From positions 62,001 to 115,549 of the forward strand of contig CAUYUJ010000309.1 of NCBI GenBank assembly GCA_963575745.1: DNA of 53,549 nt. Reading direction: 5' to 3'. Shown piece by piece: positions 2,131 to 53,549 of this stretch. The stretch comes from Prorocentrum cordatum. Its lineage: Eukaryota. The notes beneath the pieces were generated by a model. That model had not been told where the DNA came from and did not search any database. It saw nothing but the letters and a program-made list of their open reading frames with translations. The position numbers and the translations under genes were made by a program. The stretch's first letter is position 1. Each line of letters starts with the position of its first letter.

Positions 2131-2189
2131 TAGGGGTGGGCTATCGGGCCCCTGGGGCGATGAATGGGCGATTGGAGGTCGATGCATCC

Positions 2190-4290: not shown

Positions 4291-5577
4291 ATCCACAGGC
4301 ACCATCGCGTCGCAAAGACAAATCAGGACGGCAAATGTTTCACTGCTTGCGACCCTCGGGGGCCCTCGCCCGGCCCCGGGACCGCGAAGAAACGACTCGG
4401 AACGGAAAAACCGGTCCCGGGGGAAGGGTCGGGACTTCCAGGGACGCCGTCCTGGAAAAATCAGGGCGTCGCATGTCTGGGGCCTGAACCCCTTCCCCGG
4501 GAAGTGTTTTTTTTTTTACGACGACATGGGAGCCAATGTGTTCACGCGGTGTGCGAGTGTACTGCTGGACGCTACCACGAGTGAGGTATGTCGGCCATAC
4601 TACCCGATACTCCGAAGGCGTTGGGCTGCACCGTCGATCACCCCTGGAATATATACAGCCTGAGCTCGTCGGTGCAGGGCCTCCGATTGGATGGCTGCCT
4701 CGTGCCTGAATCCTCCTTTGACGGTCCCGAGGTTCCGGGAAGGCCCCCCGCAGGCCCAAAATAGCGGAAAACTTCCCGTCGTGTCTGGCGACGCTGGGGG
4801 CGAGGTGGCGGCGCACACGCGAGCGCCTGCTGCAGCGTGGCGTCGTGCACGGCCTGCTGCTCCTTCACCTCTGCCGGCGCAGGGGCGCGAGCGCGAGCGC
4901 ACAGCTGCCCCCCATCGCGCCCACACCTCCCTTCCCTCCGTTCCTTCGCTTGCAAGAAATGCGCTTGCAGTGGCCCCACGTGCACTTGCCACTCTGCTTG
5001 ACACTGCGTGGCGGCAACTCACCAATCTTCAAAGGGGGAGCTGTCACCTGCTACCGTTTAGACACATTTCGATATACAAAATGATGCCTGCACGATCCTA
5101 GCAGTGATGACTCGGACACGAACAACGAAAGAGGCCCTTATTCACGTCGCGTTCGACCACTGCGGGCGTTAACGAACATATCCAAGAGCCGTCTCCGCAC
5201 GATCGCGGCCCCCGAACCCCCCCATCTCCTCCTCCTACAGTCGGACCTAGGCCAGAAGAACGTCCTTCAAGAACATGGGGCCCTGGGCCAGCCAAAATGA
5301 GGAACATTCGAGGGCACCCTCCCCCCTGATGCACAAGAACGTCCAACAAGCACGAAGAACATGAGGGTGCCCTCCCCGAGCCGACCTCGATCATCATCCT
5401 GAGGAGGCGGAGGAGGAGGAGGCGGCGGAGGAGGAGGCGGAGGAAACCGCCGGCTTTGCGTGTCGCGCCGCCCGCCTGCTCCCTGCTCCTCCCGCTCTCG
5501 CGCTTCACGCCGGGCCCCCAGGGCCTTCAGGCCGCCCGCGCGCGCCTCGCCCGCCGACTTTCGGCGGACGCGCCTGC

Positions 5578-35699
<30,122 letters not shown>

Positions 35700-37120
35700 C
35701 TGGCTTGCGTGAAGTCCAGATTCCCTTCCGGGCCTTGCCACGCCCCCCCCCACTCTCCCCTCCGCGCAAGTAAGCAAGGGCGCCCAACTTCGCGCTTCGC
35801 GCTGGGCGCAGCGCGGCGCAGCACCAAACGCGAATAACTTCGCGCTCTCGCGCCGAACCCAAGGGAGAAGAGGAGGATGAGGAAGAATCGGAGCCGAACC
35901 GCGAAGCGCGAAGCCCGAATAACTCCGCCTCCCCTGCCTGGGCGGGGAGGGAGGGGGAGCCCGGGGGGAAGAGGAGTCAGATACGGCGGCCTCCCTGGAG
36001 CGACACCAGACAGCGGAATTGATCAGCGCCGTGATTGAATCGAGGGGAAGCCCCTTCCTTTGACCCCTCCCCGGCCGAGGGGGGCGGTCCAGGAGGGGTC
36101 CGGGGGGAGGAGTCCCGGGGGGGGGGGGGTCAGATACGACGGCCCTGGCCCCGGCACTGGGGTCCCAAGAGGGGGCCCTGGGGTCCTGGGGGAGGTCCCG
36201 CCTTCAGGATCGGCGGCACCGGCCGCAATGCCTTCACCACAGCTTCGCGCCCCCGAAGGCGCCCCCACGTGCAAGAATCTGAGGCAGAACGGCCTCCGGT
36301 CCCCGAAGGCATCCGCGGAGGCCCCCCTGTCGAGAGCCCTGGGGGGCCCAAGAGAGTCGGGGCCCGCAGCACCCACGCAGGCCTCGATCCCAGAACCCCC
36401 AGCCTCGAACCTTCTCCCGCCGCACATCCTGCAGGCAGCGTCGAGGCTCGGGGATCGATTATCGAGGCCGCCTCTCGAGGCTCAAGGCTCGGGAATATCG
36501 GGGACATCTCGAGGCTCGAGGCTCTCGAGGCTCTCCGCACTCGAGGCCGCCCCGCGAAGCTCGAGAGGCTCGTGGCTCTCGAGGCTCTCGGGGCGCACCC
36601 CGCTGCTGGCGCCCGAAGGCGCGCCCCAAGCGGTCGCCGGTGTCCGCCCTTGTGCGGCGTGAGGCCCCCTATCGCGCCCAATGCCCTCGGCGCGGCGTCG
36701 CGCCCGTCATGGTGGGCCGACTTTCTGCCACCACTACCATAGGTAGGAGGAGGAGGAGGAGGAGGAGGAGGAGGAGGAGGAGGAGGAGGAGGACAAGGAG
36801 CAGGAGGTGGAGGTGGAGGTGGAGGAGGACGAGGAGGAGGAGGAGGGAGGTGGAGGAGGAGGAGGTGGACGAGGTGGAGGAGGAGGAGGAGGAGGAGGAG
36901 GAGAAGGGCCTCCCCATCCTCCATTCTCCCCCGTCCTACCTATTGCAGCGGTGATGGAAAATTGGCCCAACATGTCACGCTCTCGAGCACGCTCGACGGC
37001 CTGAGGCCCGAGGGCAGAGGCTCGAGGCCCGAGACCCGAGAACCGAGGCTCGAGGACCGAGGCTCGAGGCCTCGAGGCCCGAGGCCCGAGACGAGGCTCG
37101 AGGGCAGCGGCCTGGAGTGG

Positions 37121-37135
37121 TTTGAGCCAAGATGG
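37121..37135 (-). other. Possible degenerate SL relic
   Basis: CCATCTTGGCTCAAA matches the relic at 13/15 positions and lies ~150 bp upstream of an ATG at 36973. Confidence 0.5.
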
Positions 37136-37348
37136 TGTCCTGAAGGAGGAGGAGGAGGAGGAGGAGGAGGAGGAAGAAGACGACGAAGAGGACATTGAGG
37201 AGAGAGAGGAGAGGAGGAGGAGGAGAGAGGAGGAGGAGGAGGAGAGGAGGAGGAGAGGGAGGAGGAGGAGGGAGGAGGAGGAGGAAGAGGAGGAGGAGGA
37301 GGAGGAGGAGGAGGAGGAGGGAAGAAGGAGGAGTTCAGAGTTCGGAGT

Positions 37349-40300
37349 TCAAGGGGGACCCTGTCCCTCGTCAGCAGCAGCCGCAGCAAGGCCCGCAGGG
37401 GTGTCTACCCTGACGGAGTTCGCCGACCTCGGCGTCCTGTACGAGGGGTGCTTCCCCTTCGCAATCCTCGCTAGGTTCTCATGCCCCTTGCGACTGCGGA
37501 TCGGGGGGCAAGCCACCATCAAATGCCGAGGGTCGGTAGTGGCCGTGAGGCCACACTTGACACAGAAACAAAGATTATGGAGGTCCCACGCCCAGATCTG
37601 GTGGCTGGGGTGGGCAGAAACGGAACCGAGCCAGGCGGGACCAACGATTTCGCGGACCACGACCCCCGAGGCGGTGGGAAAACTTGTTTTCCCAAGGGGG
37701 GGCCCAGGACACACTCTCGCCGCGGCAGAAAGCAAAGAGGTGGAGGTGACAAATTCCCTACACCTCGCGCAAACCCAACGTTGGCCCTCTCTCACAAAAT
37801 GATGAGTGGACTGGCTGAGGGCTCGGTCCCTCCTAGAAATACGCAGCATACGTTGACAGTCACCCCCCGCCCACTCGCCCTCCCAACCATCGATGTCGAT
37901 CGTATCGAGCAGACTCCTTCTGAGCCTAGCACGTATCAGAGTCGTCTCCGCATCTATGCGATCGACGGCGTGCAGATCCCAGCCTGGAGGGACGGAGAGG
38001 GAGAGTCCTCTCGCCGCGGCTTGGCTGGCCAGCGCGTCCGCGGCCGCATTGCCGACAGCCGCGAAGGCCTCTTCCCAGGTCCTGAACCGCTCTGGGTCCT
38101 GTTCCAAATGAGACGCCGTCCAGGCCATGAGAATTGGAGTGGACCTGCGGCTGGCGAGGGCACGGATCTTTTTCCACAAATATGAATTCTGTTCATTGGG
38201 GGCAGGTCGGTAGCATCTCCCGCGCATCCAAGCAAGGAACAAGGTTAAATGATCGGTGACATACTGGAACGGCATCGGAAGGAGCTCCAACGCCAGGATG
38301 AACGCACGTAGCTCAGCCCTAGGAACCGTCTGTCTGCGTCCAGACAACGGCAAAGAGGCTCCCCAAATCGGGATCCAACTGGCGGGGCTGCAGGGGCTCT
38401 GATCAAGCGCCACAATAGCGGAGCCACAACGCCTACGCCCAGGATCACTGCTGCACAGGCCTCCTGAGCCATCCCCAAAGATCTTGAGGTAGTTGTCAGG
38501 GGCCCTGAGGAGCTCGCTGTGATCACCGAACGTGTAGAAGCCCTTGTCCAAGACGTCCCTTTCATCAAAAGGAGGCCTCGTAAGGGTGCTTGCGGGGACC
38601 CCTCCGAGCCAGCACGAGGGTTCGGCCTCATGGGAAACCGCAGCTCGAGGAATGAGGCTCTGGGATCTCACGAAATCTTCATGGCCTTGATGTTTGCTCG
38701 CAACCCCAAGCACGGTGATAAGCCGTCTCGGGCTCTTTCCCACAACGCCTCCACAATCTCGAACAAGAATAACCAGCAGCAATGTGTCGTTATCTGGGCC
38801 ACTGGCCGCCCGTGGCCACCGTGATAGTGGCTGCCCACAGGTCGGTCTCTGCCTGCTGCTCGAAACGATGCAACTCTCTCGTGACGCCATTGAGGTCGGA
38901 AGAGTCCACATGGTTTGCTGCCAGAGCCCACAGCTGTGCCTTGCGATCCTGAATGAAGTCGCCCACTAACTCCATGGCGTCGGCCGCCTTGAAGTTCTCA
39001 GAGCCATACTGTGGGAAGGTCCACGTATCCGAGCCGTTGTCCGTTGGTCTCTCCCAGGCCTCAGGAGAGTGCGGTATCCACTTTGTCTGGTGGAGGGTAG
39101 CGATGACTGCACCAATAGGCCCTCGTACTCGGTTCCAGGAGACTTTCTGGTTGTGGAGTACTTTCTGTTATATGACGGGCCAAGCAAGGCGTATAGCTGG
39201 GTGGAGCTCGGGATGGCAAAACCAAATCTCAAACCAGGTCATGATCAAACTGACTGGGAGCTGAATGGCGGGGTCCCGATCCTGCAGGGTACATGCCAAC
39301 GTCGACGTGAGGCATCGTCCCTTCTTGATCCCAGCAATGGCGCTGCTGGCCTGCCGTCTGAGGGCCAGGACCATGGATGGTGGCACTCCTGCCGCCTGGT
39401 GGCCGTCCGCCGCCTGTGGCAGAGCACCTGTCGACCACAGCCCTGATGCCTCTGAGTGGACCTTCGTGTCCAACTGTCGCAAGCGAAGGATGCGGCCATA
39501 CCGCCGTCGGGCCTTGTCTCTGCGGGTAGTCGTTTTCTCGGCAGACCTGCGCCTGCCTGCTGTCGTGTCGAGACCAAGGTCGGTGGCCTGATTAGCATAC
39601 GATATGGGAAGACCATGGCCCGACAACACCCTGGCGATGCGCTTCCCAAATGTCCTGCTTGAGGCAATGATCACGGACTTGTCGGATAGTACCGGTACTG
39701 CCGAAATTGCTGAGCAAGCTCGAGGCCCTCCTGAATCGTTGCTTGGCATACAACCTGCTCTGAGCTGTCCTCCACTCTGGCTGATGTGTCGTCGACGTAG
39801 GTGCAGAGCACTGGGATAGGCCTGATCTTGTGCACGTGCTCCAAAATCGGATGGAGGAACAGCTGTGCTAAGTTAACGCCTCTCGGACTGCCAGCGACAA
39901 GAGATCTCGTGACCATGATACGAGGGCTGATCCATGATTTTGCCCTGGGGTAACGAGGGGCCAAACATGTTCGCACCAACATGACCGCTACGATCATGAG
40001 CCTGAGGAGTGACATGCAACGATGATGGCCTTGAGCTTCACGCAAGTCAGCTTCGGTCCCTGGGCCGTCAAGTGGGATGAACTCCTCCGCGGGTGCCTTC
40101 GTCGTACTATCACGAGGTGGGTCAGTCTGTGTGAGCTCTCCCTGGTCGAGATCCTGAAAGGGGCCCCACTCTCCGTCATCCATTCCACCTCCTAGAATAC
40201 AAGCCGCTGGGGCTGCAATCGGAGTACCTGTGGCGCGGCTCTGCTGCACCTCCTGCGATTCCCCCCATGGGGGAGTCTGCCCCGTGGAGTCCAGCACACG

Positions 40301-40626
40301 GTGAGCGCGGCGCCACTGCCCCTCTTCCGAACACTGGTCCTGCGGGGTGCTGCGGGCCCAGGGGGGTCTCCACGATCTCAGGCGCAGTGAAGCTCGCGCC
40401 CGTTGTCCGCGAGGTCGAGGGCTCAACTGGAGGAGAGCGCGCTCGTGAAATCAACTGCGACGTCGACACTGCCCTCGGGGTGGTTAGTCTCCGGCTCGAC
40501 CAAGAAGTACTCGTCAAGCCTGTCGCACCAATGTCTGATGCGACGCCACCTAGCGAATGCCTTGATCCAAAGCAGATTTCTCTTCTCTCCGCTCAGAGTC
40601 GATGACCTTCGGGCTCCAATCGTCGC
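37349..40626 (-). mobile_element. Decayed non-LTR (LINE) retrotransposon with RT, RNase H and C-terminal Cys motifs; 5' part missing at the junction with the YR element
   Basis: RT: GSPRGVNLA, CTYVDD (39788-39799), KSVIIAS, TDLGLD, spread over frameshifted ORFs. RNase H in the 520-aa ORF: IFGDGSGG, QTVPRAEL, YVTDH, GNAAADALA, then CARC and CVKC. A possible endonuclease remnant RLDEYFLV lies near 40495-40520. Confidence 0.85.
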
Positions 40627-41198
40627 CCATTCAGACAGTTAAGTGAGATACGCGTGCACTCAACGGAGGAGGAGGAGGAGAGGAGGGGACGAGAGAGGGA
40701 CCAGGACAGGGCGATGGTATTTTCATGGCAGCGTGGCGACGCGCATCTCCGCCGAGCGTGGGCCCTGGTGGCCCCACGCTCAACGCGAGCGCGTGGGCCC
40801 TGACGGCCCGCGCGCTCGCGCTCTGGCACGCCTGCGGCCGCTCGGCCGACGCAGGCGTCTGGGAGCAAAGCGGGGTGGGTGGGCACCCGCGCGTCGGCCA
40901 GAGCCGAACGCTACGGACCCAAAATGGCTACCTGAGCCCACACCCCCTCCCACTTAACCTGCAGTCTACAACCAATCAGACTATACAAGTTAAGTGAGAT
41001 ACGCGTGCACTCAACGGAGGAGGAGGAGGAGAGGAGGGGACGAGAGAGGGACCAGGACAGGGCGATGGTATTTTCATGGCAGCGTGGCGACGCGCATCTC
41101 CGCCGAGCGTGGGCCCTGGTGGCCCCACGCTCAACGCGAGCGCGTGGGCCCTGACGGCCCGCGCGCTCGCGCTCTGGCACGCCTGCGGCCGCTCGGCC
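40627..41198 (-). repeat. Split direct repeats of the YR element: B1 (40972-41198), A2 (~40855-40971), B2 (40627-40847)
   Basis: 40637-40847 matches 40988-41198 (offset 351). The match extends to CCAwTCAGAC if a 6-bp deletion (TATACA) is allowed in B2. Confidence 0.85.
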
Positions 41199-41511
41199 AC
41201 GAGAAAAGAAAGACGCAGCCGCGCGCGCGGGGGCGCCCCGCCCGAGTGCGAGGGCGGGATCAGAGGCTGCAAGAGCCTCGCGCGCGCGGCCACTTGCCTG
41301 CAACCTTGAGGCCTTCCGCGCCCGCGCACCCAGAGCGCGGGCGCGGCGCGTGCGCGATGCGCGCAAAAGAACCGAAAAGGGTGGCGGCGCACGAGGCGCC
41401 GGGCGCAGAGCGCAAGTGTGGCCCCGACCGCACGGCGCGCAAGACGCGCAGCACGGCCGGGTCCAGGAAGCACGCGACGTGCGCGCAACGTTAAACTCCT
41501 CCAAGAGGGAG

Positions 41512-41660
41512 GATCGCAGGCGCCACCTGCGTACCGTAGGCTAAAAGAAAGAGATCGCAGGCGCCACCTGCGTACCGTAGGCTAAAAGAAACAAGATCGC
41601 AGGCGCCACCTGCGTACCGTAGGCTCAAGGATCGCAGGCGCCACCTGCGCACGGTAGGCT
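41512..41660. repeat. Four tandem 34-43-bp units with an internal hairpin in the element's 3' UTR
   Basis: GATCGCAGGCGCCACCTGCGTACCGTAGGCT occurs four times; CGCAGG/CCTGCG forms a 6-bp stem with a 5-nt loop. Confidence 0.9.
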
Positions 41661-41754
41661 GAGAGGAGGGCCGACTCACTCACAGGCCGCCGCCTTCAGC
41701 CCGCGCCCGCGATGCCGCGGGCGCTGGCGTCGGGGTACGGGGGGGGCTCCACGC

Positions 41755-44700
41755 CTAGATGGAGGGCGTGTTCCCCCGGCGGTCGCGGCTCTCGTCTCCG
41801 CTGCGGTCTCCGCCGCGCTCACTGGGGTCCCGGGGGCTGCCGCCATCGCCGCCCCTCGACGCGCGACCGTCCGCGCTGGGCCAGTCACGCTCACTCCGGC
41901 CGCGGCTGCCCTGGTCGCCCTTGGAGTGGCCGCCCTTGCCGCTCTTGTCGCCCTTGCCGCCGCTCTTGGAGCCCTTGGCGGCCTTGCCGGAGTGCTTGCC
42001 CTTGACCTTGCCGCCCTTGCCGCCCTTGTCGCCCGCGCCCTTGCCACGCCAGGCTGGGATCCCACCCCCGCCCGCGGCAGCCTCCGCGGCGGCAGCACGC
42101 CGCCGCTTTTTCTCCTGCTCGTACCAGCCGCCGCGAGGAGCGCGAAGCTGCCCAGCGTGCTTCCCGGTCTTACGCCGCGTGCGGCCGGGCGGGGTGTCGC
42201 CGCGCCGCGCCCACGCTGGGTCCCGCGCCAGACTGTGGCTGGGCGACCTCTCGCGCTTGGGCCGGTGGCGGCTGGGCGACCTCTCACGCTTGGGCCAGCT
42301 GAGGTCGCCCGGCGGGCGGTCCCCCTCAGCCCCCGCACCCGTGGCACCCGTGCTGGGGCGCTCGCCATGGCCGACACTGGGGCCCGGCGCCTCCCGCACG
42401 GTGTGGCCGCTCCGCCGGGCCTTCTCCACCACCGTCTTGGGTTTGCCGAAGGCGACGCGGCAAGCCTCGCAGTAGCTCACGTCGCACCCCTTACAGTGCC
42501 ACCGCAGGGCTCCGCTGTTAGCTCCGCCCGCGGGGCACATCTCGCAACCCCAACCGTCTCCCGGGTCAAAGGAGCTCCAGCGCATCTTGAGTGCGCATGT
42601 CGGGCAGGCAGGCGGCTGGATGGTCGGGCCATCCTCCCCGTCGCTGCCTGGGTCAGGGCCGCGAGGCCGGCTCGCCCACTCCGTGACCACCGTGCACGGG
42701 TCCGTCTTGTAGAACCGATAGTTCGACCTCATGCACTCCCGCGCGCGCTTTGCGTCAGCGCGGCGCTGGAACTCCACCAGCACGCACGGCTCCCGCTTGT
42801 GGCGGTGGTCGTACAGGAAGGCGATGTGTTTGACGACCCCAAAGGGCACGACCACCTGCCTGACCACCTCGGCGTCGACGTGGTGCGGTACCCGCTCGAT
42901 GCGGATGATGGACTCGCCCTCGTCGTGCTGGTCACTGGGCTGCTGCTGGGCGCCCTGGCGCTGCTCCTCCTTGCGCCTACGGCGGCTCCTCGAGCGCGGC
43001 TGGCGCTGGGGCGGACCGTCCCCCGCGCCTGGCGCCTCCTCTACCTCGGTCTTCACCTCGAAGGACCGCGGCGGCGCCCCCCCGCTCTTGGGCTTCAGGA
43101 CGGCCTCACGCTTCACGATGTCGGCCTTCGGGGGGGCGCCGCCCGTCTTGGGTTTCAAGACGGCCTCCTCCTCCTGTCCCCTGCGCCCGCGATCGCGAGG
43201 CGCATCGCGCTCGCGATCGCGGCGCTTCGCGCGCGAGGGCGAGCGCAAGGGCGCAGGGCGCCTCTCGCGCTTGCGGACCTCTTCGGCGAGGCGCTCCTGG
43301 CCCGGCGACCGCGCGGGCCGCGGGCGCGCCTTTGGAGCGCTTTTGCTCTGGCGCCGCGCGGCAGCCTGGATGGCCGCACGCGCCAGCGCCGCGGTGACCG
43401 CGTCCTCTCCCGCCTCGAGGACCGGGGCTGGGGTCGACTTCCCCTCGCCCCTGCTCGAGGCGTCGTCGTCGGTGAGCTCCACGACCGCCTCCGCGTCCAC
43501 TGTGCGCATCATGTCGAGCAGCCCCTTGTTGTGCTTGCAGAGCTCGCGGAGCTCCGGCATGGGCTGCCCCTGGAACTGGGCCAAGGCGAGCGCCAGCTTG
43601 GCCGCCTGGCGCTGGACCTTGATATTCGGCCCCGCGCCCACCCCCCACGCACCCCGCTTGCCGTCGACGATCACCAGCTGGCCGTGGTCCTCGCTCGCCC
43701 CCGCGGCCAAGCAAGCCGCCGCGATGCACGGGGCTGCTTCGTGGTCGTGGTTGACCACCTCGACGAGGTCCTCGCTGTCCAGCTCGTTCACCACCGTGTA
43801 CAGGATGTTGTGGGCGGCACTCCGGAGCTCGTCCGACAGCGCGGCCCCCGAGACGACGACGCCGAGGGGGTTCACCGCCATGATGCTGTAGTCATGGCCA
43901 CGCGCCTTGCTCTGGTCCGGGGCCACCAGGCCCACCAGGAATCCCATGATGCACGCTGCCGGAGCGCGGGGCGACGGCGCGGCTGGCGCGCGGGGCTGGG
44001 GTGCGCGCGCTGCTCGCGCGCCTCGCTCTGGAGTGGGAGATGGCTGCGGATGAGAGGACCAAGAGGAGGTGGGCGTGCCTGGGGCGATCGGGAGCGGTAG
44101 CGAAAGGGGGGTCGAGGGCGAGAGGTCCACCGGGATACCCCCACAACGCGAAGCCCCCGCCCTGACCTGAATACCCGTGGGACCCGCCTGCTGCTTTCCC
44201 ACACGCCCATTAACTCCTCGCCCTGGCTCGTATCTCACCAATTCCTCCTCTCCTTCCTCCTCCGTAGTTGACCCTGCTCGCGCCGAAGGGCGCGCCCAGG
44301 GGGGGCGCCCGGGCGCCCAGGCCGGGCGTTCCGAGGGCCTCAGATCGCTCCCAAACTGGGGCGGGTCGCTCCCGGCCAACTGGTCGGGGCGGGCGCCGGT
44401 CACGGCGCCGTCGTCACCGCGGGCGTCCGGGGCCAATAAGGCGTGGCCCTCCGCCATGCCTCGGGCGAACGGAGCCTGACGCCGATGGTCCTCCCAGAGG
44501 TATCCGTGGAAGGCGTCCGAGGACCACCTCCCGAACCTCTTGACCGCTTCCAGGTCGCGACAGGCGTGGTACAACGCCGTCGCGCCCCCGATGCGCAGGG
44601 AGTGGGATCCCATCTGGCCAGCGTCCACGCCGCAGGCGGCAGCCGCGAGTTGGAGGAGCCCCTGCACCTCCTCCCGCATAATCGGGTGGCCATCGGGCCG

Positions 44701-45289
44701 GCGGAACAGGGGGAGCCCCGCCTCGGTTCCTCGTCCAAACCGGTCCGGCAGCTCCCTCTGGAGGTCGGCTAGTGCGTCCACGACACACAACTCCACCCCC
44801 GAACGGTAATGGTTGCGTACGCAACCTGCGTTAAACTGGTCCGTCTTGGACGACGTGATCGTCAGTACTACCTCATCGCAGTCGCTGAGCCTTGCGCTGG
44901 GTGTACCTCCGCGCATCCCCATGTACGACCTGCCAAGCACCACCCTCCCATAACTCCCAGAGCGTCCTCTTGACCAAATAACACCCGAACGCGCGAGAGC
45001 ATGAAAATAGTACCAGCCCTCAAATCGCCGCCCAGAGATGAGGATCGCCAATTCCCCGACCGTGCCTCCCGTGGCTAACAGTAAAACTCTCGTAGCCAGA
45101 CAACGATCCGGCGTGCCGCACTTCCATCTTTCGCCTTTTCCTTCCCATCTCGGCGGATATCCCACCTTCATCGTGGTTCCAGAAGAGCCGGCGCCGATCG
45201 GAGGTCACATCCCCAAACCCGGCCAGGGTGTGGGCATATCGAATGGCGAACAGGCGCTGGCGGATGGTCGTGGCCCGCCTCTTCATCAC
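41755..45289 (-). CDS. Tyrosine recombinase (frameshifted N-terminal part) in frame with a ~730-aa RNA-binding-type extension
   Basis: Core-binding-like TIRQRLFAIRYAHTLAG in ORF 45020-45289. In the 1138-aa ORF: SKTD (~44840-44851), HSLRIGGAT (His 44602-44604) and GRWSSDAFHGY (Tyr 44500-44502). Downstream of an in-frame Met at 43947 come a dsRBD-like WGVGAGPNIKVQRQAAKLALAL, RS/RD-rich tracts, an RRM (IRIERVP...PCVLVEF), a CxxC-x16-CxxC-x13-CxxC-x4-CxxC-type finger and a GK-rich tail. Confidence 0.85.
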
Positions 45290-45839
45290 CTAGTACAGGT
45301 ACACGACATACCGATGAGGTCTCCCTCATCTTATAGCGGCGTCCCGAGTCTCGCCCCTCTTATGGGCCCGCCCTCGTGCCTCCGCCAAGTACCCAGTTAA
45401 CGCCACCCGCGGCACTCGGTCTCGCCCCGCCGTCCCTATCGCAAGCTTGGCCAACTATCCACCGCTGGTCGGTCGCAATCCAGCCGCGGCGTCGTGAGTT
45501 CCACTTGAATCCCTGCGCGCCCCCCGAGCCGCGACCAGCCACGCGGGCTTCACAGCGCGGACAGGGCCTGCGGGACGCCGACGGCCTTGCGCGGGTGCCG
45601 CGCCGGCCCACCCCCATGGCGCTTGCCTGGGCATCCCCGCCTCCAACAGCGAAGGTCACCGCCCCGACCCGCACCCCGCCTGCCTCGTCCTCCCCTGCTG
45701 CGGTGGACCGCGCGGTAGCAGGGGGGTCGAGCTGGTCCGCCAACCGAGCGGCGTCGTCCGTCGTCTTCCCCGCCTCCAGCGCAGCCTCGAATGGCCCGCT
45801 TGGGCGATCGGGGGCCTGAAGCCAGGCCTTTAGCCACAG

Positions 45840-48800
45840 CTAAACCATCTCGTCATTAGCGAGTCGGTCGTGATCGGGCCCGACGCCAGCGCGCGCCCCG
45901 GGTGCCTCGCCTGCGCTCGCTGCCTCTACGGCCTGCCTCAGCAGGCGCTCCGCCCACTGGAGCACCCAGCGGGCCGTGCGACGCGGGAGTGCACGAGTGG
46001 CCTGCCGCATGCGCTCGGCGATCGGCATACCTCCAAGGCCCAAGGCATCCCACAGCTCCGCCGTGCCCCCCTGGGCGCACCAGATTTCTTTCGGGTGCAG
46101 GGCTCGCACGGTCCAGCCGCCCTCGGACCCTTCCAGGATCAGGGTGTTCGCATAGCCCTTCCACGGGTCGGGCTTCGCCCGTGCCGTATGGCAGGGCCCG
46201 CGCGGATCATGAATCACCACGCGCTGGGCCCGCCCGCCTCCCGCGGGCTGCCACGTGCCCCGCGGCCAAGGCATCATGCGATCCCCCGTCGTCGAGATCC
46301 GAGGGTCCACGAGCAAGGTGCCGTTGTCGAGGTCCAGGCGGAGCTCATCCAGCGGTGGCCGCCCTGCCTCCTTCCAGAGCTGGCAGAGGCCGCGTGGCTC
46401 CACGCTGGGCTGTCCCAGGGGGGGTACGGGGCCCGATGCCCGAACCCGTTCCCCGCAACCCCAAACCTGGACCGCCCGCGCGCGTGCCGTGACGTCGCCG
46501 AAGTGCGTGCACAGTAGGCGCGTCTCTGGGGAGAGTGCCACATAGCCGAGGCGCCGTAAGCGCGCCCCTAGTCGCACTGCAGCGTAGTTGACGGGGGCGT
46601 CGAGCAGCACGGCCAGTGGCCGAGTGGTGATCAGCAGCCGCTCCAGGCCCGTCGCTTCGCGTCCACCGGGGTCCTCCGATAGTGACACGCACAGCCAGCG
46701 GGTCCGCGGGGCCCCAGTGGGGTCCTTGGGGTGGTCCCCGTCGTCCGGGTCCCATCGGTCACCGACATCCCACGGCGCTAGCAGCGCCGACCCACCGAGG
46801 CTCTCCCATGCCTCCCCAAAGGGGGGCCACGCGGTTCCCACCTCCAGCAGCCGCGCCCCCTCGACCTGCAGGGGGGCGTAGCGTGGCAGGGCCTCCCGGG
46901 CTCCTTTGACTTGGAGTGCAGCCGCGCGCCAGGGCCCGTCGTCTCCTGGCATCCGCAGCTCGCGCTGGGCGGCCTCCCCCACCAGCTCGCCCCACGGTGC
47001 TGCCGGCGACAGCTCGGTCCATCCGGCCTCCGCCATCCGCTGGCGTACCTCCTCCACCGTGGCACGAGTAATGAAGTCGGCCAGCTCGTTGTGGTAAGTC
47101 CGTAAGTAAAGCCCGTCCAGGACCCGGAACTTGTACCGTGGCTCCAGCATGGCCAGGACTCGAAGCAGGTGGCGCGCCACCGCGTTCCGCGCCCGGCGGC
47201 GTCGCAGCCAGCGGCTGACATTGCTGTTGTCAGTGACGTACGGCAATAGCAGCTGGAACCAGTCCGGGCCTTTCTCGGCCGCCAAGGCTATCAGACAGAG
47301 GAGTTCGACCACCGCGATGATCTCCCCCTCCCCCTGCCACGTGACCCCAGGGGCGGAGCGGAGCGTCTCCAGATAGGGAGCCGCCTCCGCCACGATGTAC
47401 TCGCGCGAGGACCAGTCCAGCGCACCGATCCGATCCAGGGTGGCATCGCCTCCCAGCCAGCGCAGCTTGCCGAGCGCCCCCGGGAGTGCAAGGGCCTCGC
47501 GAAGGCCTAGCAGGCCCTCGAAGGAGGTCTCGAAGTTACCCTCGACCGGCATCTCAAAGCAGACGCGCAGCCAATCCAAGGTCTGGTGCCACTCGTCCCA
47601 CGCAGCCTCTACCATCTCGGGGTCGCCCGGCGGATGGACGTAGGCCTGACCTGGGTCACCCGACAGCATTCGGTGGACCGCTGGGAGCTCCAGGCTCAGG
47701 GCCGGAGCTGCGCAGGCGCAGAACTGGCCGAGCCCACTTAGCTCCCTCGCGGTTCGCAGCCGGACCATGCGGCAGCCGAAGCTCAGCTCCGGCTCCGCCA
47801 ATAGGAAGCGCATCTTCATGGCCTTGGGCTCCGGGAGTCCAACTCGCTCGCGCTCGAAGCCCATACTGAGCCCCCAGATAATCTGCGTGGTGGAAGGCTC
47901 CCCCTCGGCGTCCCTCTTGCTGACGTTCACTGCTTCGGACCCAAACACCTCACGTATGGAGGCATCCAATGCGTCGCAGGCCATCCACGGTCGGACCCCA
48001 ATGTCGGGCTCCACCACCACAGGGTCATCCAAGAGCCACTCCGAGTGGAAGTGGGTGGTGTCGTGCCAGTGCGGCTCCCCAGGCCGATAGCTCTCGTGGA
48101 GCTCCCTCGCCGCCAGGGCGAGCATCATGTAATTGCCTGGGGCTCCCGCCCACCCAAACACCATGGCTAGGTAAACGACTCTGACGTCCCCCTCGATGCC
48201 AGCGTGGGCCCCCGGTAACGAGGTGCCAAAGTCCCCGACGTCCGCCGGGGCGAAGTCCAACCACTTGAAGGCCCGCGAGACGTCCCGCTTGGCGCAGAGG
48301 AGGCGCGCTCCGGGGTGGCGCGCGCGATGCCATACCGCCGTCCTCGCCACTTGCCGATGGCGTGGCTGGACGGCAGGCGGGTGGTCGCGCTTGTGCGTGG
48401 CGGCGTTGGCCGAGAGCATCGCATGGATCATACGCCCTTCGGACGATAAGGTTCTGTCCGGTAGCTGCTTCGGTACCCTCCCCAGCGGGGCTTCCACCAG
48501 CTCCGTCAGAAAACCCTCTGCCGCCTGGGACGCCACCAGGGCGATCCCCCAGGTCACATCCGCCCATACCTTCTGGTAGGCCTCGTCGATGTGGGCTCGC
48601 ACGCTGGGGTACGGCTGGGCTCGCTTGCGCCTCCGCGGCGCGCCCCGCCGCGCGGAGGCCCCCCCTTCCGCTAGCTCCCGGACGTACTCGAAGTGCTCTC
48701 GGCTTAAACACCGTCGCACCTTGTCCCCCAGGACGCCCCGAAGGGGGTTGCCTAGGCGCTCGAGGCGCGCGCGCCTAAGCAGCGCGGCCGCTTCCTTCAG

Positions 48801-48851
48801 GGACCCCGTCCGCTGGAGGAGCTGATCCCCCAGCCCTACCAGGGTCCGCAT
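45840..48851 (-). CDS. YR-element polyprotein segment: reverse transcriptase + RNase H + degenerate C5-MTase-like domain
   Basis: 1003-aa ORF. RT: GRVPK...GRMIH, KRDVSRAF, MVFGWAGAP, WLLDD (48024-48038). DIRS-type RNase H: GGDAT, IAVVEL, VTDNSNV, HNELADFITR. C-terminal MTase motif VI-X-like strings: RPLAVLLD, LRRLGY, HFGDVTARAR, RALHPKE, RQATRALP. The frame stays open past single TAG codons at both ends (48936-48938, 45840-45842). Confidence 0.9.
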   Translation of the reverse strand: MRTLVGLGDQLLQRTGSLKEAAALLRRARLERLGNPLRGVLGDKVRRCLSREHFEYVRELAEGGASARRGAPRRRKRAQPYPSVRAHIDEAYQKVWADVTWGIALVASQAAEGFLTELVEAPLGRVPKQLPDRTLSSEGRMIHAMLSANAATHKRDHPPAVQPRHRQVARTAVWHRARHPGARLLCAKRDVSRAFKWLDFAPADVGDFGTSLPGAHAGIEGDVRVVYLAMVFGWAGAPGNYMMLALAARELHESYRPGEPHWHDTTHFHSEWLLDDPVVVEPDIGVRPWMACDALDASIREVFGSEAVNVSKRDAEGEPSTTQIIWGLSMGFERERVGLPEPKAMKMRFLLAEPELSFGCRMVRLRTARELSGLGQFCACAAPALSLELPAVHRMLSGDPGQAYVHPPGDPEMVEAAWDEWHQTLDWLRVCFEMPVEGNFETSFEGLLGLREALALPGALGKLRWLGGDATLDRIGALDWSSREYIVAEAAPYLETLRSAPGVTWQGEGEIIAVVELLCLIALAAEKGPDWFQLLLPYVTDNSNVSRWLRRRRARNAVARHLLRVLAMLEPRYKFRVLDGLYLRTYHNELADFITRATVEEVRQRMAEAGWTELSPAAPWGELVGEAAQRELRMPGDDGPWRAAALQVKGAREALPRYAPLQVEGARLLEVGTAWPPFGEAWESLGGSALLAPWDVGDRWDPDDGDHPKDPTGAPRTRWLCVSLSEDPGGREATGLERLLITTRPLAVLLDAPVNYAAVRLGARLRRLGYVALSPETRLLCTHFGDVTARARAVQVWGCGERVRASGPVPPLGQPSVEPRGLCQLWKEAGRPPLDELRLDLDNGTLLVDPRISTTGDRMMPWPRGTWQPAGGGRAQRVVIHDPRGPCHTARAKPDPWKGYANTLILEGSEGGWTVRALHPKEIWCAQGGTAELWDALGLGGMPIAERMRQATRALPRRTARWVLQWAERLLRQAVEAASAGEAPGARAGVGPDHDRLANDEMV

Positions 48852-49194
48852 GGCTTCGGGGTCATACTCAGGGTGCTCCGTGCAGAAGGTCAGGTAGACC
48901 GTGGCCAGCTCCGCCGGGCTGCACCCGTCGAGGTCCTACGCGATATCTCTGGCCGGATCCTCGCAAGGGGGTCGAGTCTTGCCCGCACTCACCTCCCCCT
49001 GTGCCCTCGCTCACCTCCCCCTGTGGCCTTGCAATGGGGGCTTAGGGGGAGAGAAGTTGGGTAAGTGAAGAGAGGGGTAAAGTGGGGGGGGGTAAATTGA
49101 GGTGTGGGAGGGGGGGGGAAGCCCGGCCAGGTGCCTTACAGCTCTTGCATATATAATGCTCGTCATGTCTGAGGCTCTTTTAATACTGAAAGAG

Positions 49195-52100
49195 TTAAAT
49201 AAGATTGAGAAAATTTAAAATACAATAAAGCCTACCGCATTTTGAGCCGTCCCCTGAGGCCTGCAGGCGCTCAATTCCAGTGAAGTCGACGCCCTGCAGG
49301 CGCCCGGGCGCCTCCGCCCGGGCGATTTTGGGGGACGCCCCCGGGCCATCCTCCCATATAGGCGCCAACTGCCGACGCAGTTGGCTCACCGACCAGCGGA
49401 GATAGGCCCCTTTCAACACCTTTGCCCACGCGGCGCAAAGGCGGGGGGCCCAAACCTGCGCCTCCTTGGTGCGCTTAATGCCCGAGCCCGGCACGTGATC
49501 CTTCAGCTCGACGCGGTGGTGGTCACGGGGGCAACGTCGCGCCAACAGCAGAGCGTGCAGATGCAGCCGGGGGCTGACGAGCCACCAGCTGCCCTTGCGA
49601 TAGCGGCTCTCTGGCGCGTCGGACGGGGCCTTACCCCAGGCGCACATGTGGATCGGGACGATCATGGCCCCCGTCGCTCGACGCAGCTCGTGCATCGGGG
49701 CCTGGCCCCAAATCTTGGGGTAGCGGCCCGAGGGGCAGTAGGACTCGATGAGAAACTCCTTGCCAGCGTCGTGTAGGATGCGGCAGGTGTCGCACGTGAA
49801 CTGTGTGTGGCTGTTACCCACGCGCTCGAACTCTTTGGAGCCATCCCCCTCGGGGTGCTCCCACGTGCGGGTGCCCTGCGGGGTCCCGCCCGGCTGGGTC
49901 ATGAGCCCGAGGTCGGTGTACGAGCCACACGGGGTACCCCAGCACCAAACGTCGGCCACGTCGGGGCCCATGGGGGTCCGTGCGGCCTCCTGTAGGCGCG
50001 CGCGGACCGCTGGGTCGAGGGTGTCATGATCCGGCCGTGGGCCGGATTCTCGGAGGGGGTCGTCGTAATATTCGATCGGCTCCAGCACCCGGATGCCCTC
50101 GGCGCGAAGCGCGGCCGACCAATATCCCGAACCGGCGTACACCTCCTGGGCGATCAAACCGTACGCGAACGCGGGGTCGTGTCGAATTGGCATCGCGTTC
50201 GCTTCCAGGAGGCGTGCCTGGACGTCGGCTGGATGTTCCCCGAACGAGGCTGGCGCGCGTCCCACTGCGCGGCCCGCCCGACCTTCCGCTGCCTTGCAGT
50301 GGGTGCAGGGCGCGCTCTTGCCCGGGACGGTGGGTTCAACGTCCGGTCCTTCATCGAGCATCTCGCGCCAGCCGACACTTACGATCTCGCGGGACAGGCG
50401 TCCTGCGTGCCCCCAGCGCTGGCCTAGGGCCGCCGCCTCCGCGTGGGAGCGCGGGCGCAAGGCGCGCATATGGCCACGCCAGATCAGGAGCGGAATTACG
50501 TGATCCTCCGCGCCGACCCCCGTCCCCATTAGGTGGTCCACGCATAGGCGCCCACTGCCGTTGACACGGAGCACCTGGAGCGTGACGGCGTCGAGGTCGG
50601 CGACGGGGCATGCTGCCAGGCAGCGATAGTCCTTGTCGTGGTGCGGGTGCACCGCATCGTGGACGTAGGAGCGGACATCGGCCTCCAGGGCCGTGATCCA
50701 CGGCGGGGAGTCGCCCAGGGCACGCAGGGCCTCGTGGGCCTCCTCCCATAGCGCATGGCGATACGTCGCGGCCAACTGCTGCACCGCGTCCGGGCTGGGC
50801 TCACCTGTGCCCCCGCCCGCGCGTAGCAGGAGCACCCCCGCAGCTACGTGCAGTAGCAGGCACTGCCGCTCCTCGGTGTCGCCCACCTCCAGGCCCATCG
50901 CCTGGCCCATCTCCTCTGTAGGGCCGAGGCGGTCCCGATAGTCGATGAAGTCCCACTGGATGCGGGTGTCCTCGTCCCAGAAGGTATAGGACCCGCGGCC
51001 TATCAGCCCGCCGGGGTCCCACGCAACCGGGCCAACCTCGGCCCCGCCCTCGGTGACGTATCCTGCGGCGCAGCTAAGCGCCTCATGCAGGTCGGCTGCC
51101 TCGCTGCTGAGACCCCGATGGCCTCGGTCCACGGCTTCCTCGAGGGCTCGCTCCATAAGCCGCTCCCCGCGCAGGCGCGCCCCCAAGACGCGCCCGCGCA
51201 CGTGGCTCTGCAAGTGCTCGCTGGCCCCCTTCAGAGGTGCGAAGATGCCCTCGGCTTCGAGCTCCTGCATGAGTTTGAGGCGAAGCTCCGGCCCATCACC
51301 CGCGGGCTGGGCGTCCCATGTGGCCGCCGCGCGCGGGTGGTCGTGGTCTTCGAGCCATCCGAAGTCGGGGCCCTTAACCGCTTCCCGGAGGTCGGATTCC
51401 ATCGCGGTAAGCTGGAGCGCAGTGTAGTCGTCCGGGGCCTGCCCCGGGCCCGGGTCGCCCGCTGCTCGCGAGCCGCTGCCACGGCCACGACCCTTCTCCT
51501 TCTGGGAGTCAGGGGCAGCAGGGGGGGACGTGTCCTCGCCAACCTTCTCGGCCTCGGCTGCCTTGGCTTGCGAGCGTAGCTGCGCAATCATCCCATCCAC
51601 CTGCTTGGGGTCGATCCAGGGCGCCCCAAGGAGCCCCCCGCGCCTCGTGAGCTGCATGACTACCGAGTAGTCCAATCCGCGCGTTGACTTGATGGGGTCA
51701 TGGGAGTTAGGGCAGTCGCAAGCCTTCCGCGAGCAGCCCATGTGCGTGGTGGCCCCCCAGCAGATAGGGACGTTGTCTTTATTGCGGGGCGCATGCGCCA
51801 CGGATCGCGTCCGCTCCGGGCGTGTTAGTTCCTTGCCCGCTGGGTACGCCCTCTTGGGGGCTGTCCCCGCTCGGGCCCCGGTGCCCGCCTTGGGCCCCGC
51901 CTTCGGCTGGGGCCCAGCCCCCGCCTTGGGCCTGTCATCCCCCTGCGCCGTGGGCCGGGGATCGCCCATCTCCTCGCTCCCTCCCGCTTTGGGCGGTCGC
52001 TTCGTGAGGTGGGCGTTCAGCTGCCCATTGAGGAGGCGCGTGCGGCCTTGCGCCGGGGCACGACCACCTGCTGGTAGTAGGCGTTCGGGTCCCCGAGGTC

Positions 52101-52266
52101 GAACGTTCGGGGCAAAACGTAGCCGTTCTCCGGCATGAGTAGGATGTACTTGATGTCCTCCCTCCTCGGGTTCTCGGCGTCGAGCTCCCGACAGAGCCGG
52201 CGCCTCAGCTCCCGCAACTCCTCGACCCAGGTGCTTCGGAGCTCTTCCCACAGATCCTTGACCCAA
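49195..52266 (-). CDS. YR-element polyprotein segment: CCCH-type Zn finger + putative Cys-protease-like domain + C5 cytosine DNA methyltransferase
   Basis: 1023-aa ORF, with the true frame probably entered by frameshift near 52040. C-x8-C-x6-C-x3-H at ~51700-51762. QCLLLH...LLIWRGHMRAL at ~50865-50458. MTase motif I EVYAGSG (~50125-50145), motif IV WGTPC (Cys 49927-49929), motif VI FLIES, HMCAWG...RYRK, and motif X-like AQVWAPRLCAAWA. Confidence 0.8.
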   Translation of the reverse strand: MGQGSVGRAPKHLGRGVAGAEAPALSGARRREPEEGGHQVHPTHAGERLRFAPNVRPRGPERLLPAGGRAPAQGRTRLLNGQLNAHLTKRPPKAGGSEEMGDPRPTAQGDDRPKAGAGPQPKAGPKAGTGARAGTAPKRAYPAGKELTRPERTRSVAHAPRNKDNVPICWGATTHMGCSRKACDCPNSHDPIKSTRGLDYSVVMQLTRRGGLLGAPWIDPKQVDGMIAQLRSQAKAAEAEKVGEDTSPPAAPDSQKEKGRGRGSGSRAAGDPGPGQAPDDYTALQLTAMESDLREAVKGPDFGWLEDHDHPRAAATWDAQPAGDGPELRLKLMQELEAEGIFAPLKGASEHLQSHVRGRVLGARLRGERLMERALEEAVDRGHRGLSSEAADLHEALSCAAGYVTEGGAEVGPVAWDPGGLIGRGSYTFWDEDTRIQWDFIDYRDRLGPTEEMGQAMGLEVGDTEERQCLLLHVAAGVLLLRAGGGTGEPSPDAVQQLAATYRHALWEEAHEALRALGDSPPWITALEADVRSYVHDAVHPHHDKDYRCLAACPVADLDAVTLQVLRVNGSGRLCVDHLMGTGVGAEDHVIPLLIWRGHMRALRPRSHAEAAALGQRWGHAGRLSREIVSVGWREMLDEGPDVEPTVPGKSAPCTHCKAAEGRAGRAVGRAPASFGEHPADVQARLLEANAMPIRHDPAFAYGLIAQEVYAGSGYWSAALRAEGIRVLEPIEYYDDPLRESGPRPDHDTLDPAVRARLQEAARTPMGPDVADVWCWGTPCGSYTDLGLMTQPGGTPQGTRTWEHPEGDGSKEFERVGNSHTQFTCDTCRILHDAGKEFLIESYCPSGRYPKIWGQAPMHELRRATGAMIVPIHMCAWGKAPSDAPESRYRKGSWWLVSPRLHLHALLLARRCPRDHHRVELKDHVPGSGIKRTKEAQVWAPRLCAAWAKVLKGAYLRWSVSQLRRQLAPIWEDGPGASPKIARAEAPGRLQGVDFTGIERLQASGDGSKCGRLYCILNFLNLI

Positions 52267-53548
52267 TGGTCTGGGAACTCCGATGGGTCCCTCTCGAAGG
52301 CCGCCTCCAAGAACCCTAACGACCGCCGACGCTCCGCCCCGGTGCGTGCGACCCTATATGAAATGGACTCGAACCTTCTGGAGCTCTCGCCGACCGGGCC
52401 CTCTTGGCAACCAGGTCGCCTATTGTGGTGAATCTGGAGCCGTTGGCGTGCTCCAGCTTGTCGTTCCACAGGTAAGCCGATAGCCAATCGGAAGTCCTCG
52501 AGCACGAGCGCGGGGGCGACAAAGATTCGTTCCTACTCGCCAGGTCAGTGAATAAAATCATATCTACAACAAACTAAATAAAAAAAAAAAGAAAAAAGAA
52601 AACAATAATGATTAAAAAAAAAAATGTGATGGGGCCCGTCCCGAAGGCGAGCGCCGCGTAGCCGTGTGCCACACGGTTGGTAACCAGGCAGGGAAACCCG
52701 ATCGTCATGAGCGTGCTCTTGGAGTGCGCACACATGCGCTTGAGTGAGTCGAACAAGTCCTTCCCCGTGATACCCTCGCAGGCCTCAACCACGAAGGTGT
52801 TGCATCCCCGGGCTATGTAAAGATCAAGTTCCTCGTCCCGACCGATCCCTGCCCTGGTGCCCCGGGCCTTCTTGTCGCCCTCGGTGGCCCGCGCCTGCCG
52901 CTCGGCGGCGAGGACGTGGCGTTCAGTGAGGCGGTTCTGGCGATCCAGGCGCTCGATAATCTGGGCTTCGGCCTCGACTGTAAGCCCGCCCAGGGCCCCC
53001 GCCGCCCCGGCGTCGTCTGGACCCCCAGCTCGCTCCCCACCCAGGCCGCCCCCGTGGGGCGTCTGGCCAGTGAGGTGGCCAAGGACCGAGGCCCCGTCGA
53101 GGAGCGGGTTGGCCCCACGGGCGGCCCCCCCGCGTCCATCGCGTGCCAGCAGGCCCCGATCACCCAGCAAGCCCCGTCGTGGGCCCGTGGGGTGGATGGG
53201 GGGCATGGCACCGAAGAGCTCGCGTCGGGGTCCCTGCTTCGGGCTGGGATCCCGTCCCCGCGCCGAGCGACTCCGCGACCCCACACGTGAGAGGCTCCCC
53301 TGCAGGGGAACCTTGTCGGCGGCCGCAGCACGCTCCCGCGCGCGCGCTTCCAGCTGCGCATCCTCCAAATCCGCGAGGGCGCGCTCTAGGTCGGACCCCA
53401 GTGGGCCCGCCGCTGCCACCTGTGCGACCCTCCGCCGCAGCTGCCGCTCCGCCTGATCAAGCGGAACCCCGAGCAGGTCCGCGGCCATACCTAATGCACT
53501 GAGAGCCGCCGCTTTGCCCCCCCGTCCTTTGAGATCCTCGGCTCGCAA
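52017..53548 (-). pseudogene. Gag-like N-terminal region of the YR element (frameshifted or interrupted; 5' partial)
   Basis: ORFs 52574-53548 and 52017-52505 give helical, coiled-coil-like protein (LERALADLEDAQLEARARE; WVKDLWEELRSTWVEELRELRRRL). They lie directly upstream of the CCCH finger and are broken by an AT-rich patch at ~52550-52625 and by frameshifts. The gag call rests on position. Confidence 0.6.
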
Positions 53549-53549
53549 G

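Follow-up and report, generated by a model that had tools for sequence, protein, structure and literature searches.

We describe here an element found at one end of a 53,549-nt stretch of the genome of the dinoflagellate Prorocentrum cordatum (assembly GCA_963575745.1, contig CAUYUJ010000309.1, positions 62,001-115,549 of the forward strand; the window hereafter means this whole stretch). The segment at window positions 40637-53549 is very probably a degraded copy of a high-copy tyrosine recombinase (YR) retrotransposon of the order DIRS, with A...B-A-B termini, whose intact form would reach about 16 kb and encode a single polyprotein considerably longer than 4,000 residues. The element lies on the minus strand, and what the window holds of it is its 3' 12.9 kb.

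As stated in the original prediction, which rested on the letters of this DNA, more than 11 kb of coding sequence runs collinearly on the minus strand, from 53549 to 41755, with a GC content of 66-73%. Four long stop-to-stop frames (the first, of 324 aa, runs off the window end, and the others measure 1,052, 1,031 and 1,149 aa) align to related proteins in one order, namely an N-terminal region with a CCCH zinc finger, a Cys/His domain of likely OTU fold, a first methyltransferase fold (MT1), a reverse transcriptase (RT), an RNase H, a second methyltransferase fold (MT2), the YR and a tail with an RNA recognition motif (RRM) and a zinc finger. On the 3' side of the coding region, a 41-nt tandem array is followed by the repeats B1-A2-B2. 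The N-terminal region is termed gag-like only by virtue of its position and its conservation among relatives. By analogy with a complete relative on a metagenome contig (locus L002), in which this region begins 3.5 kb into the element, about 3.3 kb would be missing from the 5' side of the window copy. The features are the following:

52640-53549, minus strand: conserved N-terminal (gag-like) region in frame -2, open at the window end (tblastn of the related proteins P0048, P0053 and P0055)
52565-52625, minus strand: T-rich low-complexity insertion breaking the gag-like frame, with a further frameshift near 52400 (sequence and three-frame translation)
52026-52331, minus strand: gag-like region continued in frame -1, shifting to frame -3 near 52035 (tblastn and three-frame translation)
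51700-51762, minus strand: CCCH-type zinc finger, then a conserved RRGGL motif (motif pattern)
50254-51033, minus strand: predicted OTU-fold cysteine protease/deubiquitinase-like domain, Cys at 50860-50862 and His at 50470-50472 (AlphaFold2 (AF2) model and VIA matches)
49309-50253, minus strand: MT1, predicted C5 cytosine methyltransferase (C5-MTase) fold with motifs I, IV and VI kept and without the large target-recognition domain (TRD) (Foldseek, VIA and motifs)
49003-49228, minus strand: segment private to the window copy, in which a TAA (49195-49197) terminates the first long frame (contigs of other copies)
47676-48638, minus strand: putative RT, with motif A KRDVSRAF, motif B FGWAGAPG and motif C LLDD (invariant columns in 13 relatives)
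47016-47675, minus strand: putative RNase H, with the motifs DAT...E...TDN...HNxxAD (motifs)
45843-47018, minus strand: MT2, predicted C5-MTase fold that is complete and has the small (TRD) domain, S-adenosylmethionine (SAM)-binding and catalytic motifs lost (AF2, Foldseek and motif alignment)
45840-45842, minus strand: private TAG stop, AAG in other copies
44428-45313, minus strand: YR with two frameshifts (frames -1, -2 and -3), HxLR at 44569-44604 and Tyr motif at 44494-44538
41755-43947, minus strand: in-frame cargo at the C-terminus, 730 codons when counted from the internal ATG, with an N-terminal domain without assigned fold, the RRM (42724-42906), a Cys/His zinc finger (42448-42606) and a K/G-rich tail
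41512-41660, minus strand: 41-nt tandem repeat, 3.8 copies, directly after the stop codon (repeat search)
40988-41198, minus strand: B1 repeat (direct-repeat search)
40848-40987, minus strand: A2 repeat, 140 nt, between B1 and B2
40637-40847, minus strand: B2 repeat, 3' end of the element (direct-repeat search and drop in word depth)

Relatives of this element are numerous. Among 1.84 billion proteins, the first long frame matched 925 representatives at E<=1e-3, including 87 at E<=1e-30, and the RT-bearing frame retrieved 22 proteins with 32-55% identity, one of them named from Symbiodinium microadriaticum. The same architecture is found within single proteins: P0070 (3,270 aa) combines the CCCH finger, a mid region, the OTU domain, MT1, RT, RNase H, MT2 and YR, and both P0035 and P0090 extend collinearly from MT1 through YR. 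A scan of metagenome contigs led to nine loci, L002-L005 being collinear from the N-terminal region to the YR and L001 as far as MT2, where its contig ends. L002 (15,819 nt, GC 0.678, with 44 nt of flank) contains a single open reading frame (ORF) of 4,809 aa at 247-14676, with the same domain order from gag to YR. Its A1 repeat (45-139) equals A2 (15540-15634) at 95/95 positions, an 80-nt tandem pair follows the stop codon in the same place as the 41-nt array of the window, and B1 (15339-15445) is 99% like B2 (15712-15819), the latter being ended by the contig edge. The proposal that the intact form is one polyprotein of about 4,000 aa thus gains support from the single ORF of this relative and from other copies of the window family, in which three of at least six breaks are closed (see below); the self-processing proposed along with it would follow from folds and motifs.

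Additional features of these loci deserve to be mentioned. L003 and L004 contain one in-frame stop each over the span available (1187-1189 and 6441-6443, respectively), and the one in L004 falls exactly between MT1 and RT, where it may be either a mutation or a read-through signal like that of a gag-pol boundary. The polyprotein of L002 has a signal-peptide-like start. Its first ~1,100 residues (247-3540) contain Cys-rich as well as hydrophobic, transmembrane-like segments, and a further transmembrane-like segment stands after the YR (14128-14676). N-terminal segments of this kind are also present in P0048, P0053 and P0055, and from these sequences it is possible that the retroelement polyprotein is membrane-associated. 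L002 also has, between MT1 and RT (6871-10029), about 1,050 extra residues without Pfam match, where the window has about 240 residues; this interval may be another variable slot.

Regarding the termini, the split direct repeats announced at the end of the element are indeed present, B1 and B2 being identical over 211/211 nt and separated by the 140-nt A2. Taken together, B1-A2-B2 in the window and the complete A1...B1-A2-B2 set of L002 give the order A-pol-B-A-B, that is, the split direct repeats by which Ngaro/PAT-type YR retrotransposons are defined (PMC3783388). The termini are hence of Ngaro/PAT type and not of DIRS1 type. The long inverted repeats of DIRS1-type elements were absent from 36000-53549, a span that leaves the 5' end unseen and that contained just five weak pairs of 25-35 nt, and no inverted repeat pair was found in L002-L005. 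The 41-nt tandem repeat differs in copy number in one contig of run X1 (see below). In the window (40980-40990) as in L002 (15540-15560), the A repeat starts with a similar short word, TTGTATA, though the proteins are 40% identical, and this word may have been conserved as a site of recombination or junction. The identity of B1 and B2 was also considered as a sign of a young insertion, an argument which we set aside, because the RNA template may contain B1 as well as B2.

The state of the window copy was assessed with Logan contigs from four public sequencing runs (X1, X6, X7 and X8, out of 24 listed), placed on 40300-53549 at >=90% likeness. Compared with its relatives, the window copy is broken in at least six places: in the region of the T-rich insertion (52565-52625) and again near 52400 the frame passes from -2 into -1, and near 52035 from -1 into -3; the TAA stop at 49195-49197 is followed by a change from frame -3 to -1; the TAG stop interrupts the coding sequence at 45840-45842; and the N-terminal half of the YR shifts from frame -1 to -2 and from -2 to -3. 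Three of these breaks are closed in other copies. At 45842, A>T turns the TAG into AAG (X1 81.8/81.8, X7 255.1/272.5), and GTGA added behind 52039 restores the frame (X1 34.1/42.8, X6 277.5/340.2, X8 4.66/4.66). In a contig of X8, 55 letters replace 224 nt at 49003-49228, and the net loss of 169 nt brings the first and second long frames (-3 and -1) into register. The borders of this segment coincide with loose contig ends in X1, X6 and X7. At the remaining breaks other copies also differ from the window, as seen from loose contig ends at 45184, 45313, 44920 and 52341, and above 52341 (a loose end in X6) their contigs diverge. We examined whether the T-rich stretch at 52565-52625 could be an intron and rejected this idea, its 5' edge having no GT and other copies diverging there. 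These ~60 nt within GC-rich coding sequence were treated as a private insertion, a provisional assignment.

All 30 bins of the interval were covered in each of the four runs. Although the word depth of contigs is a poor measure, the bins of the C-terminal cargo (41626-44277) have a depth like that of the core in the four runs, the bin into which the A and B repeats fall shows a 2-3-fold greater depth, and the first bin (40300-40741), which comprises the outer B2 and flank, is far shallower (in X1, 0.52 vs 78.4 in the next bin). This pattern fits a high-copy element with an end near 40637.

Upstream of the OTU and MT1 domains, the CCCH pattern C-x7-9-C-x4-5-C-x3-H occurs in 32 of 42 relatives, with x6 spacing in the window copy. 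Residues 440-1015 of the second of the four frames (P0003) were modeled with AF2 from 45 aligned sequences, giving a 576-residue, two-domain model with a mean predicted local distance difference test score (pLDDT) of 89.4, and this model was compared by VIA-align with 48,161 representatives. For the first domain, the only non-Rossmann rows within the top 50 were OTU enzymes, SnOTU (Z 8.8), OTUD3 (8.4) and Cezanne (8.4), with 129-175 residues aligned, and a nairovirus L protein was included among the BFVD matches. The Cys of the ExRQC motif is kept in 29 of 30 aligned relatives and the His of the GH motif in 34 of 35; in the model, the former sits at the N-terminus of a helix and the latter at the start of a strand, as in OTU enzymes. 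The protease-like domain of the original prediction is thereby given a candidate identity, as the Cys/His domain likely adopts an OTU fold according to its predicted structure and conserved residues.

The second domain of the model, MT1, gave 57 Foldseek matches in the PDB at E<=0.001, and all the rows shown were C5-MTases, DIM2 being the best (2.4e-5), followed by DNMT1, M.HhaI, DNMT2, DNMT3A/B and MET1. The top VIA rows were DNMT3B and DNMT3A (Z 11.7), M.HhaI (11.6) and DIM2 (11.4), and matches in BFVD were to viral and phage cytosine methylases. As the margin in VIA is small, the assignment of MT1 leans on Foldseek and on motifs: FxGxG (G in 34/34), PC (C in 30/31) and the Glu of motif VI (28/30) are kept among relatives and present in the window copy, and their retention across the family argues for catalysis, as far as sequence can tell. 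Sequence models were blind to both domains, since none of the 45 aligned relatives matched Pfam PF00145 (DNA_methylase) or the OTU models at E<=1, and PF00145 was also without match in the long relatives scanned. Searches of the PDB with sequence profiles from both alignments returned no methyltransferase, OTU or RT, and only a weak XerD match.

MT2, the other of the two methyltransferase folds that had been predicted, was modeled with AF2 over residues 640-1031 of the third frame (P0002). Foldseek aligned it over ~350 columns, spanning the catalytic and the small target-recognition domains, to M.HhaI (E 6e-12), then to M.MpeI, M.HaeIII, DNMT2 and DNMT1. In every aligned relative, the FxGxG, PC and ENV positions (motifs I, IV and VI) are replaced, while motif VIII/IX-like stretches remain. 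Since no aligned relative retains the SAM-binding and catalytic motifs, MT2 is predicted to be a pseudo-enzyme, with the C5-MTase fold and without the catalysis of the family, in agreement with the degenerate C5-MTase first reported from the letters of this DNA. A local hhalign comparison of MT1 alone with MT2 alone gave E 0.33, a level at which kinship in sequence is not detectable.

RT and RNase H were identified by motifs and by their position between the other domains, and we infer their nature on this basis. The RT motifs A-E (K-D-V-R-A-F, F-G-W-G-P-G, L-D-D, N..K; n=13) and the RNase H motifs D-A-T, E and D-N are invariant or nearly so among relatives. In UniRef, 'Reverse transcriptase domain-containing protein' is the name given to P0063, which shares a cluster with P0026, a homologue matching the RT frame at E 7e-56. 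According to the study of Symbiodinium elements, the RTs of DIRS elements in this genus do not fit Pfam either (PMC5890265). The YR, also among the domains first noticed and now backed by Pfam matches in relatives, has HxLR and Tyr motifs. Phage_integrase was matched weakly by the window (E 0.002), by 6 of 14 relatives (best E 1.9e-5) and by the ORF of L002 (E 2.2e-4), and the YR profile was weakly similar to the catalytic region of XerD (E 0.15). No DDE integrase family appeared in Pfam scans of the window frames and long relatives. On the four frames NCBIfam had no match, and Pfam recovered just the RRM, the weak YR and a weak B-box-like finger.

Behind the YR, the frame continues without stop for ~890 residues into the tail. 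The RRM scores 21.8 bits in the window and 22.7 bits in the related protein P0068 against a Pfam cut-off of 20.7, and its weak PDB matches are all RRMs; for the zinc finger (C-x2-C...H-C-x2-C...C-x2-C) only weak B-box/ZZ hints were obtained. The domain preceding them, described earlier as dsRBD-like, has no Pfam match at E<=1 and an Atlas feature score of 0.76, which is the level of chance, and this label found no support in these searches. Other relatives carry other domains. DnaJ is in frame after the YR in L003 (E 6e-13), P0016 and P0055, and Tpt1/KptA (PF01885, cut-off 26 bits) is found in P0131 (aa 1962-2125, E 3e-11, 44 bits), where it stands between RNase H and YR, and in P0183 (aa 1740-1845, E 1e-15, 58.5 bits). 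P0131 itself ends in a GH28 domain, probably from a fused neighboring gene model. A BLASTP comparison of P0068 with the tail of P0055 showed no similarity. From these comparisons of sequences, we conclude that the RRM/zinc finger tail is a putative lineage-specific cargo and not a feature of the family, placed in a slot which the family appears to use repeatedly. Of the RNA-binding cargo originally proposed, an RRM above the Pfam cut-off and in frame has thus been retained, while the tail is specific to a lineage and its handling of RNA is deduced from motifs.

Several observations weigh against the interpretation of 40637-53549 as a copy of a giant, multi-enzyme element. With at least six breaks, the window copy cannot itself encode the polyprotein. 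The window contains no second copy of A2, and the 5' end with A1, expected beyond 53549 by analogy, is unseen for this copy. OTU Z scores of 8.4-8.8 are near the level that VIA gives for unrelated models, and the OTU rows, obtained with a 576-residue two-domain query, rank under Rossmann-fold rows; short-chain dehydrogenases and other Rossmann enzymes reach Z 10.4, to be compared with 11.7 for DNMT3 in the case of MT1. The MT2 model, built from 14 sequences, has a pLDDT of 66.6 and is hence of moderate confidence, and RT and RNase H have no Pfam or PDB profile match. Finally, the tail from the ATG at 43945-43947 has a sole protein match, P0068 (729 aa, 98% identity), encoded on a 2,869-nt contig and starting at this internal Met; 0 of 23 long relatives and 0 of 9 loci matched the tail, a metagenome scan with it was empty, and contigs of X8 leave the window sequence at 44395 and 44410, directly after the YR.

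These last points raise the question of whether the core ends after the YR, the RRM/zinc finger ORF being a host gene or another insertion, transduced or nested before the B-A-B repeats, and thus a passenger. Outside the window, the tail is seen only in the 98%-identical protein and in near-identical contigs; a low-complexity linker of 160 residues separates it from the YR, and core and tail may be separate in some genomes. We nevertheless consider a mere passenger quite improbable: the tail shares strand and frame with the YR without intervening stop, lies upstream of the B-A-B repeats and has the word depth of the core in the four runs, relatives with DnaJ in the same slot suggest that capture is a habit of the family, and a captured passenger copied with every element would still belong to the element. 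The claim that the locus is one element, neither nested nor chimeric, accordingly stands from gag to YR, where L002-L005, L001 up to its contig end and P0070 have the same order, while for the tail it is weakened by its absence from all more distant relatives.

The functions ascribed to the domains can also be disputed. It is conceivable that the methyltransferase folds do not methylate cDNA. The substrate of MT1 could be host DNA or, as in the case of DNMT2, RNA, or the two domains could have only a structural or nucleic-acid-binding role. DNMT2 structures are among the matches of MT1 and MT2, MT1 is devoid of the large TRD and MT2 is catalytically dead by its motifs, and for the published SymbioLINE-Dnmt, which failed to methylate DNA in yeast, methylation of RNA has been put forward as a possibility (PMC5890265). 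Such an explanation is, in our opinion, unlikely, as FxGxG, PC and the Glu of motif VI are maintained in MT1 throughout the family, MT2 keeps the parts that contact DNA (the TRD-like domain and the motif VIII/IX-like stretches) and a DIRS-borne Dnmt3 methylated CG de novo, as reported in the same study (PMC5890265). Somewhat more weight, though still well short of an even chance, is given to the view that the OTU domain is a deubiquitinase shielding the element's proteins from ubiquitin-dependent restriction by the host, any processing of the polyprotein being left to host enzymes. All the structural matches of this domain are deubiquitinases, and the OTU domains of Helentrons are, in the source at hand, not known as processing enzymes (PMC6431247). 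Against this, a 4,809-aa ORF with at least nine modules needs cleavage or else acts as one chain, and YR retrotransposons are described as having no other protease (PMC3783388). The two roles are, moreover, not mutually exclusive. Viral OTU-like proteases, such as those of tymoviruses and arteriviruses, both process polyproteins and remove ubiquitin.

With the giant single-polyprotein element as the preferred reading, a cycle can be proposed in which self-processing, methylation of cDNA and handling of RNA are suggested by folds and motifs. The full-length RNA would be translated, and the OTU-like protease would cut the polyprotein and may also remove ubiquitin. The CCCH finger and the RRM/zinc finger tail would bind the element's RNA, on which RT and RNase H would make cDNA, the internal B-A junction serving as a template for the joined ends. 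MT1 would then methylate cDNA cytosines and the dead MT2 would contribute DNA binding or regulation, in a division of labor like that of DNMT3A and DNMT3L. Recombination of the closed cDNA with the genome, carried out by the YR, would complete the cycle. Lineage-specific cargo, RRM/zinc finger here and DnaJ or Tpt1 in relatives, would enter the slot behind the YR, as well as others. More speculatively, and with a confidence that is low, giant single-ORF YR elements could be seen as a modular enzyme platform having their own OTU protease, catalysis by the TRD-less MT1 and DNA recognition by the dead MT2 acting jointly on nascent cDNA, swappable cargo and a virus-like, membrane-associated stage that is only hinted at.

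The closest published system is SymbioDIRS-Dnmt3 (de Mendoza et al., 2018; PMC5890265), in which a DNMT of the Dnmt3 clade, recognized by PF00145, is part of the Pol ORF together with the RT, the YR is in a separate ORF and the repeats are in the order A-coding-B-A-B. As far as the accessible text allows comparison, it has in common with the window family a dinoflagellate host group, the repeat plan, a predicted cytosine methyltransferase next to a putative RT/RNase H and an RT too divergent for Pfam. In contrast, PF00145 matches 0 of 45 relatives in the window family, and a single ORF encodes the YR together with RT, RNase H and MT2 (P0035, P0070, P0090 and L002). The window family also adds the OTU domain, two methyltransferase folds flanking RT-RNase H and the cargo tail, while the available text of PMC5890265 names neither a protease nor a second methyltransferase; the family may be among the DIRS elements 'lacking DNMTs' of that study. 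A 2026 preprint (10.64898/2026.05.21.726589) lists, in the part available, just SymbioDIRS-DNMT3 and SymbioLINE-DNMT for dinoflagellates. The novelty claimed for the combination must hence be narrowed, as DNMT-bearing DIRS elements are already in print (PMC5890265), while our literature search, with Repbase outside its scope, retrieved no report of an OTU domain or methyltransferase pair in a YR retrotransposon, nor, in the sources as accessible, of the active/dead pair, the single giant ORF or the cargo slot.

Likenesses to other systems concern parts of the element. With Ngaro/PAT-type elements it shares the YR, the A-pol-B-A-B plan and, judging by motifs, RT and RNase H, and a DDE integrase is absent; those elements are described, in the text available, as encoding gag, pol and YR in ORFs of their own and as lacking a protease, unlike the one ORF, OTU domain, two C5-MTase folds and cargo of the window family (Muszewska et al., 2013; PMC3783388). 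The combination of a catalytic C5-MTase with a related fold without catalytic motifs is reminiscent of DNMT3A-DNMT3L, the difference being that here the two would belong to one polypeptide with RT and RNase H between them, that the dead copy bears the TRD-like domain and the live copy does not, and that the pair is known from sequence and models. In size, Ngaro/PAT-type elements are several kb long, compared with ~16 kb for the window family. Ginger1 DNA transposons are said to carry an OTU-like cysteine protease, and one is present in Helentrons (PMC6431247); the likeness lies in an OTU fold inside a eukaryotic mobile element, those elements being, unlike the present one, DNA transposons.

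The surroundings of the element can be described briefly. Directly downstream of it, an open frame of 538 codons (37349-38965, minus strand) matches RNase H only weakly (E 0.0017, under the cut-off) and was without match in a PDB search; another retroelement may have left this frame behind. GGA/GAG-rich low-complexity arrays occupy 36709-37363, and short purine-rich runs occur elsewhere in the window and inside the B repeats. The window also contains a 100-N assembly gap (10911-11010) and, within DNA otherwise of 55-70% GC, AT-rich dips at 18001-20000 and 28001-30000 (GC 0.36 and 0.43, respectively).

Until now, YR retrotransposons have been described as small and protease-free, and those in print that bear cytosine methylases were found through a Pfam model. 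The family described here is invisible to PF00145 and yet counts 925 representatives, so that dinoflagellate censuses of transposon-borne DNA methylases are probably incomplete. Moreover, its OTU domain together with an ORF of 4,809 aa suggests that this class of retroelements, thought to be without protease, may have evolved a polyprotein strategy that depends on one. Finally, the natural pair of an active and a dead methyltransferase would offer a direct test of whether such elements methylate their own cDNA in order to pass as 'self' in heavily methylated genomes.

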